Source of the DNA: a virus
Strand: one strand, 5' to 3'
Virus record (IMG/VR): IMGVR_UViG_3300035703_000033
Span: 1 to 64,000 of that record
Length of the DNA stretch: 64,000 nt
Below are positions 35,256 through 44,187 of the stretch, piece by piece. The notes under the pieces are model-generated. The model was not told the DNA's origin. It saw nothing but the letters and a program-made list of their open reading frames with translations, and searched no databases. The number at the start of each line of letters is the position of its first letter. The first letter of the stretch is position 1. The translations under genes were made by a program, and so were the position numbers.

Positions 35256-36800
35256 ATGGCAACAGTAAACAAAAACTTTAGAATTAAAAATGGTTTGGTT
35301 GTTGAGGGATCAACAGCTACCGTAAACGGCGAGGATATCTTAACCAGATCCCAAGCCGATCAATCTTATATAGTCAATTTAATTGGCGGTACAGCAACTT
35401 CACAAAATACACCAGATACTGTTGTTAAAAGAGACGGATCTGGCAACTTTGCTGCAGGAACAATTACAGCAAACCTTACAGGTGATGTAACTGGTACAGT
35501 TTCAAGCATTTCTAACCACGATTCAGATGATTTATCAGAAGGTTCTTTAAACCTATATTTCACAGATGCTCGTGCAAGAGCTGCTCTATCAAGCGGAACA
35601 GGTATAGATTATAACTCATCAACAGGTGTAATAGCTGTTGATAACACAATTGCGACAAAGACATACGCAGATAATGCAGCAGAGTCAGCAGTAAATGCTC
35701 TCGATACAGATGATATCGAAGAGGGAGCATCTAATTTATACTTTACAAATCAGAGAGCGCTTGATGCAACAGCGGCTGCTTATGACGCAGCAGGTTCTGC
35801 TTCAACAGCACAGACTGCAGCACAAGGCTATACAGATTCTCAGCTAGAAGATTATACAACAACAGCACAGCTAGATACAGTTATTGATAATCTAGGATAT
35901 TTAAAGTCAGCAGACCTTACAGGATATGCAACAGAAGGATATGCCGATGGCGCAGCATCTAATGCACAATCAGCAGCAGAAGCAAATGCATCTACATATA
36001 CAGATAATGCCATAAATGCTTTAGATACAGACGATATTGAAGAGGGTACAGTAAATAAGTACTACACAGACACTAGAGTTTTATCATGGCTTTCTGATAA
36101 AGGTGGAACTGGAATTGATATTGACTCTGTAAGTGGTCAAATATCTATAGATAATACAGTTGCAACAACATCTTATGTCGATACAGCAATTAATAATCTT
36201 GTTGATGGAGCTCCAGGACTCCTAGATACTCTAAATGAGATTGCAGCAGCAATTAATGATGATGCAAATTACTTTACAACAGTAACAAATGCAATTAATG
36301 CTAAGCAGAACAACTTAACAGCTGGCGCAAATATTGATATCACAAACGATACAATATCTGTAACTGGTTTAGATACAGATGACGTTGCAGAAGGCACAAA
36401 CCTATATTTCACAGATGCCCGTGCTCGTGATGCAGTAGATGGAACAGACCGCTCATTTACATCTGTAGCAATTAATGAAGTTTCAAAGGAAGTTGCTGCA
36501 ACTACTGGTAATATTGCAACAGCAGCAGCCACAACAGCATATTCTTGGCTAAAGACAGATTATAGAAGCGCCAAGTTTATGGTTAAAATTAAGAATGGCA
36601 CACATACAGAGGTTTCTGAAATTCTCGTAACTCTTGATACTTCTGATAATGTTTATCTAACAGAATACGGAATGTCTTCAACTAGCGGAACATCTCTTGG
36701 AACAATTTCAGCAGATGTCAGCTCAAATGATGTAAGAATCCGTGTAACACCAGCAAACAACAACTCAGAAGTTATTGTAGCTGGAACACTATTAATATAA
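35256..36800 (+). CDS. tail fibre protein with TDD..EG..NLYFT repeats
   Basis: Four (T/S)DD.(E)EG..N.Y(F/Y)T repeats; AP..LDTLNEIA motif; YRSAKF C-terminal domain. Confidence 0.85.
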   Translation: MATVNKNFRIKNGLVVEGSTATVNGEDILTRSQADQSYIVNLIGGTATSQNTPDTVVKRDGSGNFAAGTITANLTGDVTGTVSSISNHDSDDLSEGSLNLYFTDARARAALSSGTGIDYNSSTGVIAVDNTIATKTYADNAAESAVNALDTDDIEEGASNLYFTNQRALDATAAAYDAAGSASTAQTAAQGYTDSQLEDYTTTAQLDTVIDNLGYLKSADLTGYATEGYADGAASNAQSAAEANASTYTDNAINALDTDDIEEGTVNKYYTDTRVLSWLSDKGGTGIDIDSVSGQISIDNTVATTSYVDTAINNLVDGAPGLLDTLNEIAAAINDDANYFTTVTNAINAKQNNLTAGANIDITNDTISVTGLDTDDVAEGTNLYFTDARARDAVDGTDRSFTSVAINEVSKEVAATTGNIATAAATTAYSWLKTDYRSAKFMVKIKNGTHTEVSEILVTLDTSDNVYLTEYGMSSTSGTSLGTISADVSSNDVRIRVTPANNNSEVIVAGTLLI

Positions 36801-37234: not shown

Positions 37235-39598
37235 ATGGCAACAGTAAGAATTCAACTAAGAAGAGGCACAGCCGCTGAATGGACAGCCACAAACCCTGTC
37301 TTGGCCGCTGGCGAAATGGGTCTGGAGACAGACACTGGCGATTTTAAATTTGGTAATGGTACAGACACATGGAGCAACCTTGCATATTCATTAGGTAATG
37401 CAATAGATGACTACATTCCTTTATCTGAAAAGGGTGTAGCTGACGGAGTTGCTACCCTAGATTCATCAGGTTTAGTACCACTAGCACAGCTTCCAGGGGC
37501 AGCAGCTTTGGATGCAGAGGTAAGCTCAGCAATTTCTGATCATAATTCAGATACCACAAATGTACATGGTATAGCTGACACATCGATATTAGTAACAACA
37601 TCAGGAACACAAACATTAACTTCAAAGAGCTTAACTTCACCAGCTCTTACTGGAACACCTACCGCTCCAACAGCAGTAGTAGGAACAGATACAACTCAAA
37701 TTGCTACAACTGCATTCGTACAAGATGCAATCGAAGCAGTTGTAGGTGCAGCTCCAGCAGCATTAGATACATTGGCTGAAATTGCAACATCTTTAAATGA
37801 TGATGCGGATTTGGCTGGAACATTAACAACATCAATTTCAGAGAAGGTAGCCAAGTCTGGCGATACAATGTCTGGAGCTCTTGATATGGGGTCTAACAAG
37901 GTTACAAATCTTGCAAGTCCTACAACAATTTATGATGCAGCAAATAAGTTTTATGTAGATTCTAGATCAGCAGCAGATGTCGGAGGACACGCAAGCACCA
38001 CAACAAATGTTCATGGAATCGCAGATACTACACAATTAGTAGTGCAGTCTGATGAAAGATTAACAAACGAAAGATATCCTGTTCCTTTATCTGTTACAGA
38101 AGGCAAGATTGCTAATGCTGCTGTTACAGAATCAAAGATTGCAGATAGCTCAGTATCTAATTCAAAGCTTGCAGATGGATCAGTTACTACTGTAAAGATT
38201 GCAGATGATTCTGTTAGCACAGCAAAAATTGCTGATAATGCAATTTCTACAGATAAAATTGCTGATGCTGCTATAACAAATGCTAAAATAGCAGGAAACT
38301 CTATAACTGCTTCTTTAATGCAGGACAATTCAATAGATACAGCTGCAATAGTTGACAGTGCTGTAACTTCAGCTAAAATTGCAATTTCAGCAGTTGAGGA
38401 ATCAAAAATTGCAGATGATGCAGTTTCTACTTCTAAGATTCTTAATTTAGCTGTCACAGAAGATAAAATTAACACATCAGCTGTTACAGAAGGCAAGATT
38501 GCTAATGCTGCTGTTACAGAAAATAAAATCGCAGATGGTTCTGTAACTTCAGCTAAGATTGCAAATGGATCTATAGTTAATGAAGATATTTCAACTACTG
38601 CAGCAATTGCTCAGTCTAAAATTGCAGATTTAACAACAGATCTTGCAGCCAAAGCACTTGATTCAGATCTTGATGCACATATAAATGCAACTACTTCGGT
38701 ACATGGAATTGCAGACACATCTGTGCTTGCAACAGATTCTGATGTAAGTGCTGCACAGACAGCTGCAGAGGCGCATGCAGATTCTGCAGTATCTACACAC
38801 AATTCTGATACAACTTCTGTACATGGAATTTCTGATACTTCTCAGCTAGCATATAAGAATGCTGCAAATCAGACATTTACAGGAAATATGGAAGTTGATG
38901 GAAATCTTGTAGTAGATGGAGACTTTACTGTAAATGGAACAAACTTCTCTGCTTCAGCAACATCAATTGTCATCGAGGACAACATGGTTCAGCTTGCACA
39001 TCAAAATGCTGCAAATACAGTAGACCTTGGTCTTGTAGTTGCATATAATGATGGTTCAGCAAAGCACTCTGGTATTGTAAGAGATGTTTCTGCAGATAAG
39101 TGGAAGCTATTTAAGGGTGTAACAACAGAGCCAACAACCACAGTTGACTTTACACAGGGATCCCTAGATGATCTTCAGGTGAAGAACCTAGATGCTGTTG
39201 CAATTACAGCTACTGGAGCAATTACAGCATCTTCTTCTGGAGTAGTCTTTACAGATGGCACTCAGACAAAAGCTGGAGTTCCGTCTATCACACCAATTGC
39301 AGAAAAGACTGCAAACTATACACTTTCAAGCTTAACAGAAAGAGATACTCTTATTGAGGTAAATCATACAGGAGGAACTGCAGTTACAATTACTGTACCT
39401 TCAGATGCTACTGTAAACTTCCCAGTAGGAACATCAATCGATATTTTAAGAACAAATACTGGAGAAGTAACAATTGCTGGCTCAGGCGCTACAGTGAATG
39501 CTACACCAGGATTAAAGTTAAGAGCTCAGTGGTCAAGCGCAACTCTATTTAAGAGAGCGGCAAACACATGGGTACTATTCGGAGACCTAAAGGCATAA
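37235..39598 (+). CDS. long tail fibre with Mtd-N-like head and 10-aa VTxxKIAxxA repeats
   Basis: IQLRRGTAAEW...NPVLAAGE.G.ETDT; 10-aa repeats; LRAQWSSATL...W...GDL C-terminus. Confidence 0.85.
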   Translation: MATVRIQLRRGTAAEWTATNPVLAAGEMGLETDTGDFKFGNGTDTWSNLAYSLGNAIDDYIPLSEKGVADGVATLDSSGLVPLAQLPGAAALDAEVSSAISDHNSDTTNVHGIADTSILVTTSGTQTLTSKSLTSPALTGTPTAPTAVVGTDTTQIATTAFVQDAIEAVVGAAPAALDTLAEIATSLNDDADLAGTLTTSISEKVAKSGDTMSGALDMGSNKVTNLASPTTIYDAANKFYVDSRSAADVGGHASTTTNVHGIADTTQLVVQSDERLTNERYPVPLSVTEGKIANAAVTESKIADSSVSNSKLADGSVTTVKIADDSVSTAKIADNAISTDKIADAAITNAKIAGNSITASLMQDNSIDTAAIVDSAVTSAKIAISAVEESKIADDAVSTSKILNLAVTEDKINTSAVTEGKIANAAVTENKIADGSVTSAKIANGSIVNEDISTTAAIAQSKIADLTTDLAAKALDSDLDAHINATTSVHGIADTSVLATDSDVSAAQTAAEAHADSAVSTHNSDTTSVHGISDTSQLAYKNAANQTFTGNMEVDGNLVVDGDFTVNGTNFSASATSIVIEDNMVQLAHQNAANTVDLGLVVAYNDGSAKHSGIVRDVSADKWKLFKGVTTEPTTTVDFTQGSLDDLQVKNLDAVAITATGAITASSSGVVFTDGTQTKAGVPSITPIAEKTANYTLSSLTERDTLIEVNHTGGTAVTITVPSDATVNFPVGTSIDILRTNTGEVTIAGSGATVNATPGLKLRAQWSSATLFKRAANTWVLFGDLKA

Positions 39599-39608
39599 GG
39601 AGCAAATA

Positions 39609-40946
39609 ATGGCAATTAATAAAAGATCAGGAACAGGTTCTTCCGCACAGGATAACTTTATCGGACCAAATCCAGTTACTGGATTAACAGCAACAGATGT
39701 TGGTTCTGGAAGAGCATACAACGATGGTAGAATTGATTTGTCTTGGACAAACCCGTCTACTGGAAATACTCCAACAGGGTATAGAATTATTCGTGGTGGA
39801 ACTGAAATAGCAACAGTAGCTCATCCTAATAATACATACTCAAATACTGGGCTTTCTTCAGCCACTTCATATTCGTATGTAGTTCGTGCATATGATGATT
39901 ATGCTACAGCAGCAGATTCAAATACTGCTAGTGCTACAGCAACAACAGTTCCAGCTACAATGAGTGCTCCAAGTGCTACAGCTGGAGTTGATAAGGACAC
40001 ATTGTCTTGGACAGCACCAGCAAATGGTGGTTCAGCAATTACACTATATAGATGGACATCAAGCGACGGAAAGACTGGAACATCTACTGGAACATCAGTT
40101 GATATTTCTCAAGAAGCAAACACTGCACAAACATATCAAGTTAGAGCAGAGAATGCTAACGGAGCAGGAGTGTATTCTGGAAATTCAAATCAGGTTACAA
40201 CCCAGGCCCCAAGCTTCTTCGGTCCTCCAAGCTTCTTCGCCCCTCCAGGGTTCTTTGCCCCTCCAGGGTTCTTCGCCCCTCCAGGGTTCTTCGCCCCTCC
40301 AGGGTTCTTTGCCCCTCCAGGGTTCTTCGCCCCTCCAGGGTTCTTCGCCCCTCCAGGGTTCTTCGCCCCTCCAGGGTTCTTTTCTCCACCAAGCTTTTGG
40401 AAGTCTGTTGGAATTAACACTTTGATTAGAACACCTGGCGGAATGGTTTCTGCAGGACAGTTGGAAATTGGAGATGAGGTAATTGGTTTACGTATACCAG
40501 GTATACCAGATAACTATTGGTTACTTGATGACGGTTCATATGGCTCATACTCAGATTTTGTAATATCAGAAGAGCAATTAAATAATGCAGAAGAGACAAT
40601 TGTAACTGTTACAGGTAAGAGACTTCATGAGAATGCTGGAGCTGCAGCTGTTAATGGTGATATTTATACTATTAACCACTACATTCTAGCCAAGAGAAAT
40701 GGTGAAATTAAGTCTTTGAATGTTAAGGATTTATTGTCAGATGATCTTATATATAACTATCAGACAAAAGATTTTGTTCCAATAGAATCTCTTGAGATAA
40801 ATGAAGAAATTACAATTCAATCATATTCTATAAACGTAGAGCCATGGGACTTCTACTTTACAGAAAACGGTTTAACCTTTGATATGCAGGCGCTATCAGA
40901 GTCTCTGTCTGGATCTGATGATCCAGATGGTTCTGGCCCCCTATAA
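39609..40946 (+). CDS. FN3-domain protein with (FFAPPG)n repeat and C-terminal Hint-like domain
   Basis: Two FN3-like units (LSWTNP...Y.VRA; LSWTAPANGGSAIT...VRAENANG); 10 hexapeptides; Hint blocks SVGINTLIRTPGG...LEIGDEV, TINH, SINVEP.D.YF. Confidence 0.85.
   Translation: MAINKRSGTGSSAQDNFIGPNPVTGLTATDVGSGRAYNDGRIDLSWTNPSTGNTPTGYRIIRGGTEIATVAHPNNTYSNTGLSSATSYSYVVRAYDDYATAADSNTASATATTVPATMSAPSATAGVDKDTLSWTAPANGGSAITLYRWTSSDGKTGTSTGTSVDISQEANTAQTYQVRAENANGAGVYSGNSNQVTTQAPSFFGPPSFFAPPGFFAPPGFFAPPGFFAPPGFFAPPGFFAPPGFFAPPGFFAPPGFFSPPSFWKSVGINTLIRTPGGMVSAGQLEIGDEVIGLRIPGIPDNYWLLDDGSYGSYSDFVISEEQLNNAEETIVTVTGKRLHENAGAAAVNGDIYTINHYILAKRNGEIKSLNVKDLLSDDLIYNYQTKDFVPIESLEINEEITIQSYSINVEPWDFYFTENGLTFDMQALSESLSGSDDPDGSGPL
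40215..40394 (+). repeat. 18-bp tandem repeat x10 encoding FFGPPS-(FFAPPG)8-FFSPPS
   Basis: TTCTTYGCCCCTCCAGGG units directly visible. Confidence 0.97.
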
Positions 40947-40953
40947 AATATAG

Positions 40954-41493
40954 GTGAAATTTAAAGTAACAAGTACTGGTCAGGAGATAGAGAAATCTAT
41001 CTCCTATCAGTCTTTCCCAGAAGAGTTATATAATGAGGGTATATGGGGTCATTTTGCATTTATAGAAGATAAAGAAATGAATATTCGTGTTATATGTTCT
41101 GCTTATAACAATGATAGATATTCTCCAGGTACTGTTGTCGTATCGAATAAAATATTTAATGATTTTCCAATTGCTCAAAGTGCATGGAATATAAGTAATA
41201 AAATTAGTAGAATGTATGTTGATCCGTTTTATAGAAATAAAAAGGTTGCAACTTATAGTGTTATAACAAATGATATGTTAGCTAGAAAAATGGGTTATGA
41301 AATATGGTCTAATATATACGGAGAAAAAGGCGGTACTATAGCAGGCGACCAACTTTATAATAAAATATACGATTTAGGTTTTGAGGTAAAGAAAGCACAG
41401 ATAGACCTAAACGATATTTTTCAATATAGAAATTTTTCACACCCAATACATTACATAGATAAGAGACCAGTTTATGATGAATCAAGTCTATAG
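40954..41493 (+). CDS. GNAT-like acetyltransferase
   Basis: RMYVDPFYRNKKVAT resembles GNAT motif A; T.AG..L. Confidence 0.6.
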   Translation: MKFKVTSTGQEIEKSISYQSFPEELYNEGIWGHFAFIEDKEMNIRVICSAYNNDRYSPGTVVVSNKIFNDFPIAQSAWNISNKISRMYVDPFYRNKKVATYSVITNDMLARKMGYEIWSNIYGEKGGTIAGDQLYNKIYDLGFEVKKAQIDLNDIFQYRNFSHPIHYIDKRPVYDESSL

Positions 41494-42049
41494 CAAAACC
41501 AAATTTTTAAAGAAAGAAGTCAATTTTGACTTTGATATAAAAAATATAAAAGATATGTCTTTTAAAAAAGATGAGTTATTTTTTGTTGATAATGGAAATC
41601 TTAATAAAAATAACGAAATTGTTTATAAATCAAAAAATATATTTACTATATACAGCAGAGACATCCACAGCCTATATAAAAGTATATCTAGTCTATTAGA
41701 TGAATCTTGTGATTTATATGAAATAAAAAAAGATATACAGAACTATATGATTTATGGCAAAATTTCAGAGTATGGTGAACATAATAGAGGAATATGGTAT
41801 GATTTTCCAGGAATAAATATTCCATACTTACACGGGTTTTTCTTCTTTGACTCCAGCTATGAGGTTAACTTTAAAAATCAAAATAATTTAGTTAAAGAAT
41901 TAATAAATACCAATACAATTATTATCAATAAGCCGACAGATTTAATAAACATTAAATCAGAAAAAGAGTCAGAGGTAATTGAATTCTATATAGTCCCTAT
42001 TGATATGTTAAAACATAATGAACCAGGCGTATGGGTTCCAATATTATAA
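41474..42049 (+). CDS. hypothetical protein, possible degenerate DSBH/2OG fold
   Basis: LHGFFFFD spacing similar to 2OG oxygenases but no HxD. Confidence 0.6.
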   Translation: MMNQVYSKTKFLKKEVNFDFDIKNIKDMSFKKDELFFVDNGNLNKNNEIVYKSKNIFTIYSRDIHSLYKSISSLLDESCDLYEIKKDIQNYMIYGKISEYGEHNRGIWYDFPGINIPYLHGFFFFDSSYEVNFKNQNNLVKELINTNTIIINKPTDLINIKSEKESEVIEFYIVPIDMLKHNEPGVWVPIL

Positions 42050-42786: not shown

Positions 42787-43481
42787 TGTATTCTATAACA
42801 GCCTATAATATAGGAGGTTTAGCTACCATTAGTCAGTCTCCAGTAAAAAGAGATTGGATGGAAGATACATATGATAAGCATGCCTATAATTGTTTCCCAG
42901 TAACAATTACAAATTCATTAGGGTGGAGCATATCTTTTCCAGAAGAAATTTCTTTTATTTGGGATGGCATATCAGATAGTTCAGCAGACCACGTTAAAGT
43001 TTTAAGTGGAGAAAAGTATGTTTCAACTAGAAGAGCTAATGGAACCATAAGCTTTAATTCTGGATTTGGTTTTAAAACACAAAATGACTTAAGCTTGTTA
43101 TGCATGCCAACACCAAACCAGTTTATAAGGGGTGCTCAATGTTTTACTACTTTAATATCAACATCTTTTTTTAATGGAGACTTCCCTATAGTTTGGAAAA
43201 TTACTGAGCCTATGATAAAAATAGTAATTCCTGCAAACACGCCAGTTGCTAATATTATTCCTATATCTTTAACAGAATTACAAAATTCTGAAATAAATTT
43301 TGAACCAGTAAGCAATATGCCATCCAGTAAATGTCCACCAGAATTTGCTATAAAAGCTGTTGAGAAAGCATACCAGACTGGCGGATGGACAAATTTTTAT
43401 AGAGATGCAGTAGATGCATGCGGGAACAGTATTGGGTCGCATGAAATAAAATCAATAAGATTGAAGGTAAATAATGCCTAA
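42786..43481 (+). CDS. DUF6065-like protein
   Basis: RDWM...AY.C.PV...N..GW; WK.T; P..TPV..IIP. Confidence 0.7.
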   Translation: MYSITAYNIGGLATISQSPVKRDWMEDTYDKHAYNCFPVTITNSLGWSISFPEEISFIWDGISDSSADHVKVLSGEKYVSTRRANGTISFNSGFGFKTQNDLSLLCMPTPNQFIRGAQCFTTLISTSFFNGDFPIVWKITEPMIKIVIPANTPVANIIPISLTELQNSEINFEPVSNMPSSKCPPEFAIKAVEKAYQTGGWTNFYRDAVDACGNSIGSHEIKSIRLKVNNA

Positions 43482-44187
43482 AATAACATTTCATTCAAAT
43501 AAAACTTATAATCAACCAGGACATGAATTAAATCCTAAACCAGCAAAGAAGAGCGTTCCTCAATGGTTTTCCGAATCAAGCAGGTACTGGTTTCCAGAAG
43601 TAAAAGACTCTCTTTCATTTAAAGCTTGCCCAGCATTAGTAGATGCATTTCTTGCAGGTTATGTTTTAAAAACTCCATGCGACATATATTTCCAAAAAGA
43701 GTCTAGCTCTGATGTTTTTAAGCACACTGATATATTTAAAGTTTATAAAGAACCAGGATATGATGATTTTTGTTGTTCAAGACCAGATATGCCAGGGTTT
43801 CCCAAGCCACACGGATTTGATAAACATTTTCATTGGTTTCCTAATTGGATGCCAGGGCTTGAGCCAGGCTACAGCGCTTTATATGTTCATCCATTAAATC
43901 GTTTTGATCTACCGTTCATCACCGTCTCTGGTATAATTGATAACGATAAGATGAATACCCCTGGTTTAATGCCTTTCTTCCTTAAAGAAGGTTTTGAAGG
44001 TCTGATTCCAAAGGGAACTCCATTTGTTCAGATAATTCCATTTAAAAGAGAAGATTGGGAATCAGAAGAGCAGATGTATTCCATAGAAGAGATATTTGAA
44101 AGACATAATTATCAAGCAAATAAGTTTAGAGTTCCAGAGGGCGGGGCTTATAAGAAAAAAGTTTGGTCAAGAAAGAGGTATGATTAA
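43474..44187 (+). CDS. DUF6065-like protein (second copy)
   Basis: P.PAK..VP.WF, K.CP...D....GY, HPLNR, SGIID.D, KGTP..Q.IPFKR. Confidence 0.65.
   Translation: MPKITFHSNKTYNQPGHELNPKPAKKSVPQWFSESSRYWFPEVKDSLSFKACPALVDAFLAGYVLKTPCDIYFQKESSSDVFKHTDIFKVYKEPGYDDFCCSRPDMPGFPKPHGFDKHFHWFPNWMPGLEPGYSALYVHPLNRFDLPFITVSGIIDNDKMNTPGLMPFFLKEGFEGLIPKGTPFVQIIPFKREDWESEEQMYSIEEIFERHNYQANKFRVPEGGAYKKKVWSRKRYD

Follow-up and report, generated by a model that had tools for sequence, protein, structure and literature searches.

A Hint domain with Ser at its start and Asp at its end probably cuts itself off the Phe-Pro repeat tail of a phage fibre-region protein

Bacterial intein-like (BIL) domains perform cleavage or atypical transfer instead of canonical splicing (PMC7765530, PMC8616854), and both this cleavage and the chemistry of inteins with serine as residue 1 (Ser1) are established (PMC4031507, PMC7765530). 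Asp can also stand in for Asn in step 3 of inteins (PMC4031507). Here we analyzed a window of 64,000 nucleotides (positions 1 to 64,000 of IMG/VR virus record IMGVR_UViG_3300035703_000033), in which the protein encoded by one gene of the fibre region ends in a domain related to these systems. Profile alignments and structure models identify it as a true self-processing domain of the intein/Hedgehog (Hint) type, in a Ser/Asp variety that has not been described. Our literature searches, which covered sources other than subscription journals, found no paper on a Ser1...Asp phage Hint family.

The gene is located at 39609..40946 on the plus strand, as are all other features described here, and is the final gene in the tail-fibre block, with an AGGAG ribosome-binding site 7 nt upstream. 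According to the ORF list and its translation, it encodes a fibre-module protein of 445 residues consisting of two FN3 modules, an FFAPPG tract, the Hint domain, and an acidic tail. The FN3-type modules span approximately residues 20-199 (39666..40205; Pfam fn3, 2.1e-7, in two stretches). The N-terminal module has 752 homologues, and residues 26-116 match a PHROG "tail" family. The modules are followed by a Phe/Pro repeat tract, SFFGPP...(FFAPPG)n...FFSPPSFWK (40212..40403), in which TRF finds a tandem array at 40215-40381 with an 18-bp unit encoding FFAPPG, 9.3 copies, and 94% matches. The copy number varies between close relatives. The tract ends in Lys265, which occupies position -1 of the junction K|SVG. 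Ser266 (40404..40406; Ser in 64 of the 64 aligned rows covering the position) is residue 1 of the Hint domain and the predicted nucleophile for an N-to-O acyl shift at the Lys265|Ser266 bond. The Hint fold comprises 160 residues, Ser1 to Asp160 (40404..40883), containing the block B motif T-I-N-H with Thr89 and His92 of the domain (40668..40679; aligned with T-A-D-H of intein 9hth) and blocks F/G, YSINVEPWDFYFTENGLTFD (40824..40883). In the profile alignment, the terminal Phe159-Asp160 takes the place of the intein His-Asn. The last 20 residues, MQALSES...DPDGSGPL (40884..40943), form an acidic tail lacking a +1 nucleophile. The model of this tail is of low confidence (pLDDT 64 and 51 in the final two blocks), and its end motif DPDG[SP]GPL is kept in the closest relatives. 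All motifs quoted in an initial annotation made from the sequence, namely the Ser start after FWK, TINH, block F, the FD end and the acidic tail, are present at these positions.

The AlphaFold check proposed in that annotation gave a model of the Hint domain with pLDDT 91.1 and pTM 0.85, and it agrees with a Hint fold carrying an intact N-terminal catalytic set (Ser1, T89/H92). When this model was searched with Foldseek, BIL domains, mini-inteins, and the Hedgehog Hint were matched at probability 1.00, with E-values of 2.4e-7 for BIL 2lwy (TM 0.78 on the target), 2.4e-6 for BIL2 6y75, and 8.8e-5 for Hedgehog 1at0. The 45 PDB matches listed at E <= 0.001 are BIL, intein, or Hedgehog Hint structures, with probabilities of 0.99-1.00. 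The profile of the family points to the same proteins, matching BIL 2lwy at 4.9e-6, including an alignment of block A, and the Ser1 intein of Aes123 PolB1 (9hth) at 4.3e-5. Since solved Hint proteins are matched both by the family profiles and by Foldseek with the AlphaFold2 model, the motif resemblance is not due to chance.

The Hint part of the 445-residue protein has no match in Pfam, PHROGs, or NCBIfam, a single-sequence search of the protein against PDB sequences returned only chance matches (E ~1), and a tblastn search of 50,697 phage records with the full-length protein returned only an FN3 match. The window protein and all relatives tested score under the gathering cut-offs of the Pfam Hint families. 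For Hint_2 (PF13403, the B-type BIL family), Intein_splicing (PF14890), and PT-HINT (PF07591), the window protein has no match, and the best relatives reach 21.3 bits against a cut-off of 28.4, 34.1 against 35.8, and 26.4 against 27.7, respectively. With a PASTA-type relative as the query, the only matches in cultured phages were distant, canonical C-terminal Hints of the Cys1/His-Asn kind, located in proteins labelled "virion structural" in jumbo phages of Erwinia and Dickeya.

The family comprises 302 IMG/VR contigs, with 92 representatives at 50% identity, and its catalytic residues are highly conserved. Every member covering the junction begins with Ser or Cys; among 105 clusters at 80% identity, residue 1 is Ser in 85 and Cys in 20. 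In the Ser1 family, domain position 89 is Ser in 64 and Thr in 28 aligned rows, and [S/T]xxH with His at position 92 is intact in 90 of 93. Asp149 is conserved in 84 of 96 aligned rows. The whole domain is under strong purifying selection (pN 0.11-0.25 versus pS 0.61-0.77). A catalytically silent domain might also be placed under such selection; it would remain attached as a folded distal knob that could, for instance, mediate binding or help the repeat tail to fold, and its Hint motifs would be historical remnants. Related Cys1 caps lack the block B His, showing that the scaffold tolerates the loss of catalytic residues, and the subtype of the window protein lacks the penultimate His and the +1 nucleophile. 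However, an invariant Ser or Cys at residue 1 (105 of 105 clusters), together with the [S/T]xxH conservation, is hard to explain without catalysis, and homologues devoid of the Hint indicate that the protein works without such a knob. We thus find a silent knob decidedly doubtful.

At the C-terminal end of the domain, the final residue of the family aligns with the mutated Asn of 9hth (N159A) and of BIL2 6tmm (N143A), and the residue before it aligns with His G:6 of both structures. The initial annotation described the end as FD instead of HN. The FD pair does align on the intein His-Asn, but it is a minority state. By cluster, the ends are HD in 40, FD in 22, YD in 10, and YN in 8, and 72 of the 85 Ser1 clusters end in HD, FD, or YD. 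With 76 of 91 aligned rows sharing it, the terminal Asp is itself conserved and thus represents more than the mere loss of an Asn. Block-F positions that aid catalysis in inteins also differ in the profile alignment, with Ser instead of Asp at F:4 and Asp instead of His at F:13. The HD subtype keeps His together with a Ser/Thr at +1 in 35 of its 40 clusters, which could favor genuine splicing, by a (mini-)intein or splicing element in which Asp160 takes over the cyclisation from Asn and the repeat tract is fused to the short C-terminal tail. Among solved sequences, the nearest relative (9hth) is a Ser1/Ser+1 phage intein, and inteins with a C-terminal Asp can splice, according to the portion of PMC4031507 that cites Amitai 2004. 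In contrast, the FD subtype, to which the window protein belongs, has a variable +1 residue and retains neither the penultimate His nor the +1 nucleophile; the window protein itself has Phe at G:6 and Met at +1, which would preclude extein ligation. The domain also contains no homing endonuclease, and its host is a variable protein, not a conserved enzyme. The same type of cap is found on unrelated N-terminal modules (FN3, PASTA, PKD), and the tails of Hint-less alleles do not resemble that of a spliced product. Splicing in the window protein is therefore very improbable, and a mobile intein was rejected because of the missing endonuclease, the non-contiguous exteins in Hint-less alleles, and the variable host proteins.

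Taken together, we consider it reasonably probable that the C-terminal domain of 160 residues is a BIL-like, non-mobile Hint autoprocessing domain whose role is that of a removable cap for a fibre-module protein of the phage. Judging from the sequence and the model, the Hint probably cuts itself off the greasy Phe-Pro repeat tail. In the folded protein, Ser266 would attack the carbonyl of Lys265 with the aid of Thr354 and His357 of block B, and the last peptide bond of the repeat tract would be converted into an ester. No splicing step is expected to follow, given the Phe in place of the penultimate His and the Met in place of the +1 Ser/Thr/Cys. Instead, an external nucleophile, in the simplest case water, would resolve the ester and yield a mature FN3-FN3-(FFAPPG)n protein of ~28 kDa that ends in Lys and a free Hint fragment of ~20 kDa. 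The C-terminal end of the mature protein would be the Phe/Pro repeat tract. The terminal Asp, predicted to sit beside the scissile bond in the site of the intein Asn, probably either assists in resolving the ester or removes the tail by cleavage. Several points weigh against this reading: the members tested score under the Pfam Hint cut-offs, residues F:4 and F:13 differ from those that aid catalysis in inteins, oxyesters form less readily than thioesters, and purifying selection on the whole domain would also fit a retained structural or binding domain that does not cleave. The initial annotation had proposed cleavage only at the N-terminus. For the window protein, which has no penultimate His and no +1 nucleophile, this is still the most economical reading, but cleavage at the C-terminus may also occur, as Asp-ending inteins can cyclise and cleave (PMC4031507).

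The genomic context is consistent with a removable cap. In gene neighbourhoods taken from IMG/VR loci, all 80 related loci have the Hint at the extreme C-terminus, where it directly follows an aromatic/Pro/Gly repeat of low complexity; the tail after it has a family median of 6 residues. In syntenic relatives, the same FN3-repeat protein is found with a Ser1 Hint, with a Cys1 Hint, or with no Hint. The Hint-less homologues stop a few residues past the repeat in unrelated tails (...RxY-COOH), which is the product expected if the Hint were removed. A dependence of the oxygenase block on the Hint was rejected, as the block is retained in Hint-less alleles; it therefore tracks the repeat protein or the phage lineage. 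Phage tailspikes and fibres can also carry a C-terminal intramolecular chaperone domain with autocleavage activity (Peptidase_S74 type), which removes itself once its job is done. The likeness of the phage Hint to these domains is a functional analogy only, as fold and mechanism are unrelated and no match in sequence or structure was seen between them.

Directly downstream of the Hint gene is a second gene, D1 (40954..41493), for which a VIA fold search and the ESM Atlas both suggest a GNAT-like fold. The best 50 VIA rows are all GNAT folds with Z of 6.3-7.7, obtained with a mediocre model (pLDDT 59.6), and the top rows include glycine N-acyltransferase and an aminoacyl-tRNA-dependent peptide synthase. 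The ESM Atlas relates D1 to viral Acetyltransf_1 clusters at 0.95, and a Pfam search gave no match. The acetyl-CoA loop motif (Q/R)xxGx(G/A) appears as RxxGxW in relatives and is only partly kept, as RxxKxA, in the window copy. Of the 80 loci, 61 contain D1, and it frequently overlaps the stop of the Hint gene. It is usually followed by D2 (41474..42049; 64 of 80 loci), an uncharacterised gene with no match in Pfam, PHROG, or NCBIfam and with weak leads in the Atlas to 2OG-oxygenase-like viral clusters.

The position of D1 suggests that it may assist the ester step or redirect the ester to an amine. Along these lines, another molecule could supply the amine or hydroxyl that resolves the ester at Ser266, for example a virion protein through a lysine, a component of the host wall, or some small molecule. 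The FN3-repeat protein would then become covalently attached via the carbonyl of Lys265. D1 would be an acyl-transfer catalyst, or an ester trap that acylates the freed amine of Ser266. Such Hint-driven ligation has a precedent in Tetrahymena BIL2, one of the best structural matches, which forms an isopeptide bond from a Hint thioester (PMC8616854), and the transfer of acyl groups from thioesters or esters onto amines is what GNAT-fold enzymes catalyze. D1 adjoins 26 of 33 Ser1...Asp clusters versus 0 of ~29 clusters that are Cys1 or Hint-less, and a search accompanied by a control showed it to be absent from five genomes with a Hint-less allele. However, on the tree of the FN3 module, this association amounts to 5 contrasts, 3-4 of them concordant and none discordant, and it is not significant (p ~0.25) because the independent events are too few. 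D1 is also missing from 7 of the 33 Ser1...Asp clusters, and its poor model and incomplete acetyl-CoA loop weaken the case further. We consider ligation rather unlikely overall. In its most specific form, the Ser1...Asp Hint and the adjoining D1 would act as a two-part device, in which the Hint makes an oxyester of the C-terminal Lys carbonyl and the GNAT-like partner passes the acyl group to an amine of the virion or host wall, or traps or cyclises it (by acylation of the Ser amine or as a lactam of the C-terminal Lys). This is an unlikely arrangement; if true, it would provide phage-encoded, ATP-independent covalent anchoring or capping of a fibre protein. The initial annotation suggested that a lipid, sugar, protein, or amine could receive the repeat C-terminus, which is purely conjectural; for a non-water acceptor, the GNAT-like gene is the only circumstantial hint and BIL2 the only precedent.

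BIL domains (Clostridium thermocellum 2lwy and Tetrahymena BUBL BIL2, 6y75/6tmm) are the best structural and profile matches of the phage domain and are likewise non-mobile Hints in variable, non-conserved proteins of extracellular type. The phage family differs from them in having Ser1 instead of Cys1, in being phage-encoded and invariably found at the very C-terminal end, after an aromatic/Pro repeat, and in scoring under the Pfam Hint_2, PT-HINT, and Intein_splicing thresholds. It ends in [H/F/Y]-Asp, unlike the His-Asn of A-type BIL domains, and unlike B-type BIL domains as described in PMC7765530, it keeps the G-block register of inteins. Similar to Hedgehog/Hog proteins (1at0), the phage proteins have a C-terminal Hint, for which cleavage at the N-terminal junction only and transfer of the N-fragment carbonyl to an external nucleophile are proposed. 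Nevertheless, they are from phages rather than eukaryotes, use Ser rather than Cys, lack a G|CF junction, and have a terminal Asp that aligns with the intein Asn. Hedgehog-like sterol transfer was rejected, as there is no sterol-recognition region and only the 20-residue, low-confidence tail follows the Hint. The cysteine-less intein of Aes123 PolB1 shares Ser nucleophiles with the family and is, across blocks B to G, its nearest sequence relative with a solved structure. In contrast to Ser1 mini-inteins, the window Hint is not inserted in a conserved enzyme and differs at F:4 and F:13.

These observations describe a large uncurated branch of Hint domains that forms an exchangeable C-terminal cap in phage fibre-region proteins, beside the known inteins, Hedgehog, and BIL domains, with Ser and Asp in places usually held by Cys and Asn. 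Self-cleaving modules that are all-serine and cysteine-free would also have practical value as tags for protein engineering. Should the ester be transferred to another molecule, this would be the second natural case of Hint-driven protein conjugation after Tetrahymena BIL2 and might be the first to involve a dedicated helper enzyme. If the cap does cleave, it would define the maturation of a Phe/Pro-rich, possibly hydroxylated tail on virion-associated proteins of abundant lake phages.

The stretch under study is the C-terminal part of a 445-aa ORF (39609..40946, + strand), the final gene of a tail-fiber block. Two upstream genes match fiber families (35256-36797 and 37235-39595, the latter with an Mtd_N head), and downstream the 2OG-Fe(II) oxygenase and DUF6065 genes are followed by the portal, prohead protease and capsid genes. 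The source IMG/VR virus record is 109.6 kb long, with an estimated completeness of 92%, and contains the domain in a single copy. The protein starts with two FN3 modules, continues with a Phe/Pro tract (40215-40381) encoded by 9.3 copies of an 18-bp tandem repeat, and enters the Hint domain at the junction ...FWK/SVGINTLIRTPGG. The domain contains a TINH motif (40668-40679) and ends with the segment YSINVEPWDFYFTENGLTFD (40824-40883), after which there is an acidic tail of 20 residues. The motif letters and coordinates in the initial annotation were all correct when checked against the protein. The 18-bp units are nearly identical, which points to recent repeat expansion or contraction. Between close relatives, the number of FFxPPG units varies widely, from ~2 to more than 12.

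The domain of the window protein has no match in Pfam, PHROGs or NCBIfam, reaching the gathering score of none of the Pfam Hint families, and no match in a single-sequence search of PDB sequences. An exhaustive HMMER search yielded 92 representative relatives; these proteins span 150-1100 aa and almost always carry the domain at their very C-terminal end. The relatives' profile matches the bacterial intein-like (BIL) domain of C. thermocellum (2lwy, 4.9e-6) and the gp41-1 intein (7.6e-5), and a domain-only profile matches the Ser1 "cysteine-less" Aes123 PolB1 intein (9hth) at 4.3e-5. An AlphaFold2 model of the domain, built from 55 sequences, has a pLDDT of 91.1 and a pTM of 0.85. When this model was searched with Foldseek, all 45 matches listed at E <= 0.001 were BIL domains, mini-inteins or Hedgehog Hint, including 2lwy (2.4e-7), Tetrahymena BIL2 (6y75, 2.4e-6), Hedgehog (1at0, 8.8e-5) and many inteins. 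The best matches in a predicted viral structure library are uncultured-phage proteins, with "Hint domain containing", "PASTA_pknB" and "Fibronectin type III" among their automatic names. As the profile, AlphaFold2/Foldseek and viral-structure matches agree, we regard the Hint fold of the domain and its homology to Hint proteins as settled. The initial annotation had called it a Hint domain and proposed comparing an AlphaFold model with Hint folds; the profile matches to 2lwy and 9hth and the Foldseek result bear this out.

The residue register was obtained by profile alignment to 9hth and Tetrahymena BIL2. The family S/T-x-x-H motif aligns with intein block B, the last residue with the intein terminal Asn (substituted by Ala in the two crystallized constructs), the penultimate position with the intein penultimate His, and the residue after the domain end with the intein +1 Ser. 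Intein positions F:4 (usually Asp) and F:13 (usually His) correspond to Ser142 and Asp149 (domain numbering). Conservation was counted over 97 aligned rows: residue 1 is Ser in 64/64 rows covering it, position 89 holds S or T in 92 rows, position 92 is His in 90/93, and Asp149 is conserved in 84/96. The penultimate residue is H (44 rows), F (25) or Y (20), and the terminal one is D (76), N (14) or E (1). Clustering at 80% identity gave 105 clusters, 85 with Ser1 and 20 with Cys1. The Ser1 clusters carry Lys (46), Tyr (13) or Asn (10) most often at -1, end in HD (40), FD (22), YD (10) or YN (8), and have a tail of median 6 residues. The +1 residue is Ser or Thr in 35 of the 40 HD clusters, and M, A, S, R, G and others in FD clusters. 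These counts place the window protein in a subtype (FD) that, judged from its sequence, has lost two of the elements needed for splicing and has kept the N-terminal catalytic set and Asp. Purifying selection acts on the domain, with pN of 0.11-0.25 against a saturated pS of 0.61-0.77 in comparisons with nine relatives.

In Hint proteins, residue 1 and the block B Thr/His drive an N-to-O or N-to-S acyl shift, and splicing is completed by the +1 nucleophile and a cyclizing terminal residue; an intein with Asp, Gln or Glu as its last residue can still cyclize, BIL domains cleave at either end, and Hedgehog passes its ester to cholesterol (PMC4031507, PMC7765530). Tetrahymena BIL2 passes a thioester to lysine (PMC8616854). 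In the window protein, an ester would form between Ser266 (residue 1) and the carbonyl of Lys265; as +1 is Met and G:6 is Phe, transesterification would not follow, and the ester would be resolved from outside, with the Hint domain departing. The same Met and Phe make true splicing of this protein highly improbable. N-terminal cleavage without splicing, as the initial annotation proposed, is favored by the retained catalytic set and the lost splicing elements and is probably what occurs, with plain hydrolysis of the ester more likely than assisted resolution. Transfer to a nucleophile other than water, of the kind reported for Hedgehog and BIL2, is unlikely, and a silent, retained domain is less likely still. 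The conserved Asp speaks against a plain loss of the terminal catalytic residue; this Asp may serve to activate the attacking nucleophile or to remove the tail. The domain belongs to the Hint superfamily and may, by analogy, work like a BIL or Hog domain. It differs from class 1 inteins in having neither a +1 nucleophile nor contiguous-extein alleles, from Hog domains in lacking the sterol-recognition region and Cys1, and from A-type BILs in lacking the His-Asn end.

An IMG/VR scan found 302 contigs with a relative, 80 of which were fetched as loci. In 80/80 loci a low-complexity aromatic/Pro/Gly repeat (FFxPPG, FGFTP, FFPP, NYG, GAFSAF, NEPAF or poly-Pro, for example) runs directly up to the Hint junction. 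The N-terminal modules vary: among 55 members scanned, 16 have fn3, 14 have PASTA and some have PKD. The PASTA repeats, of the peptidoglycan-binding type, replace FN3 ahead of the repeat and Hint (P0014 and P0016, for example), and their presence in 14 of 55 members fits a role in contact with the cell wall and hosts that are Gram-positive (actinobacterial). Gene order persists even at only ~35% Hint identity: fiber gene, Hint gene, D1, D2, then oxygenase and DUF6065 genes. D1 (40954-41493) is present in 61/80 loci, often overlapping the Hint gene stop, and D2 (41474-42049) in 64/80. D2 gave no hit in Pfam, PHROGs or NCBIfam. In some lineages (L054, L056, L062, L073, L080, L081), a second DUF6065-like gene (43474-44187 in the window) directly follows the Hint gene, in the place of D1.

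The FN3-FN3 module has 752 homologues. Among 112 retrieved, a C-terminal Hint is present in 64 and absent from about 35 phage-type proteins. The latter end a few residues past the repeat, typically in ...G-x-x-R-x-Y-COOH; their short conserved tail is ...G-x-x-R-x-[Y/F]-COOH or FCPECTKGCPC (L083-L091, L102-L107, L112-L125; P0102-P0169). In a second IMG/VR scan, syntenic genomes showed three C-terminal end types: a Ser1...Asp Hint, a Cys1 Hint or no Hint. Cys1 Hints end in HN/K-COOH, ...IIRN-COOH or ...IAIA-COOH and often miss the block B His; block B is S-x-x-Q in the HN/K type. A single Lys is the final residue after His-Asn in 13/14 HN-ending Cys1 clusters (P0111-P0143; L123:1732-3015, L133:7992-9215). 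This one-residue "C-extein" is odd and reminiscent of the Lys nucleophile of BIL2. The existence of alleles lacking the Hint, the location of the Hint after a hydrophobic repeat and the swapping of cap types all fit a removable cap.

The oxygenase block accompanies all three end types and is retained in Hint-less allele genomes, so its presence is independent of the Hint. By genome, D1, D2 and the additional DUF6065 gene accompany the Ser1...Asp type and are absent from syntenic Hint-less genomes. At 70% identity clustering, D1 adjoins 26/33 Ser1...Asp clusters and 0/~29 others. The D1 profile, which hits the genome of the window itself at 2.1e-63, has no match in five Hint-less-allele genomes, of which four are >=96% complete; two of the five have another Hint elsewhere. 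In one of these two, the related phage genome G001, a canonical Cys1/His-Asn Hint lies behind a TIN/TVN repeat in a 1232-aa protein, again without D1. This protein (L163:843-4541 = G001:C1:102342-106040) runs from Cys-rich repeats through (TIN)n(TVN)n to a Cys1...AHN Hint, a further case of repeat plus Hint cap with another repeat, and a P4H-like oxygenase gene directly follows. The FN3-module tree requires no fewer than 11 changes of cap type and no fewer than 7 of D1; there are only 5 phylogenetically independent contrasts, with D1 concordant in 3-4 and discordant in 0 (p about 0.25). The link between D1 and the Ser1...Asp type is therefore suggestive, not demonstrated. D1 has no Pfam match and looks like a divergent GNAT-fold protein: the motif R-x-Y-x-x-P-x-x-R-x-x-G is at the expected place, the best 50 VIA rows of a fold comparison are all GNAT folds (Z only 6.3-7.7, from a weak model of pLDDT 59.6), and the ESM Atlas gives 0.95 to viral Acetyltransf_1 clusters.

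We found no description of this phage Hint family in the literature searched, which mostly did not cover subscription journals. New here are the residue-level intein register, the split between HD-Ser and FD subtypes, the three-way cap polymorphism, and the tracking of the Ser1...Asp type by D1, with oxygenases independent of the Hint. Cultured jumbo phages carry distant canonical C-terminal Hints in "virion structural" proteins. One of these, gp108 of Dickeya phage vB_DsoM_AD1 (L082:3002-4441; "virion structural protein"), combines collagen-like G-X-Y repeats with a canonical Hint at its C-terminus (Cys1, His-Asn, Thr+1), and could offer a tractable experimental model of phage fiber proteins with a Hint cap.
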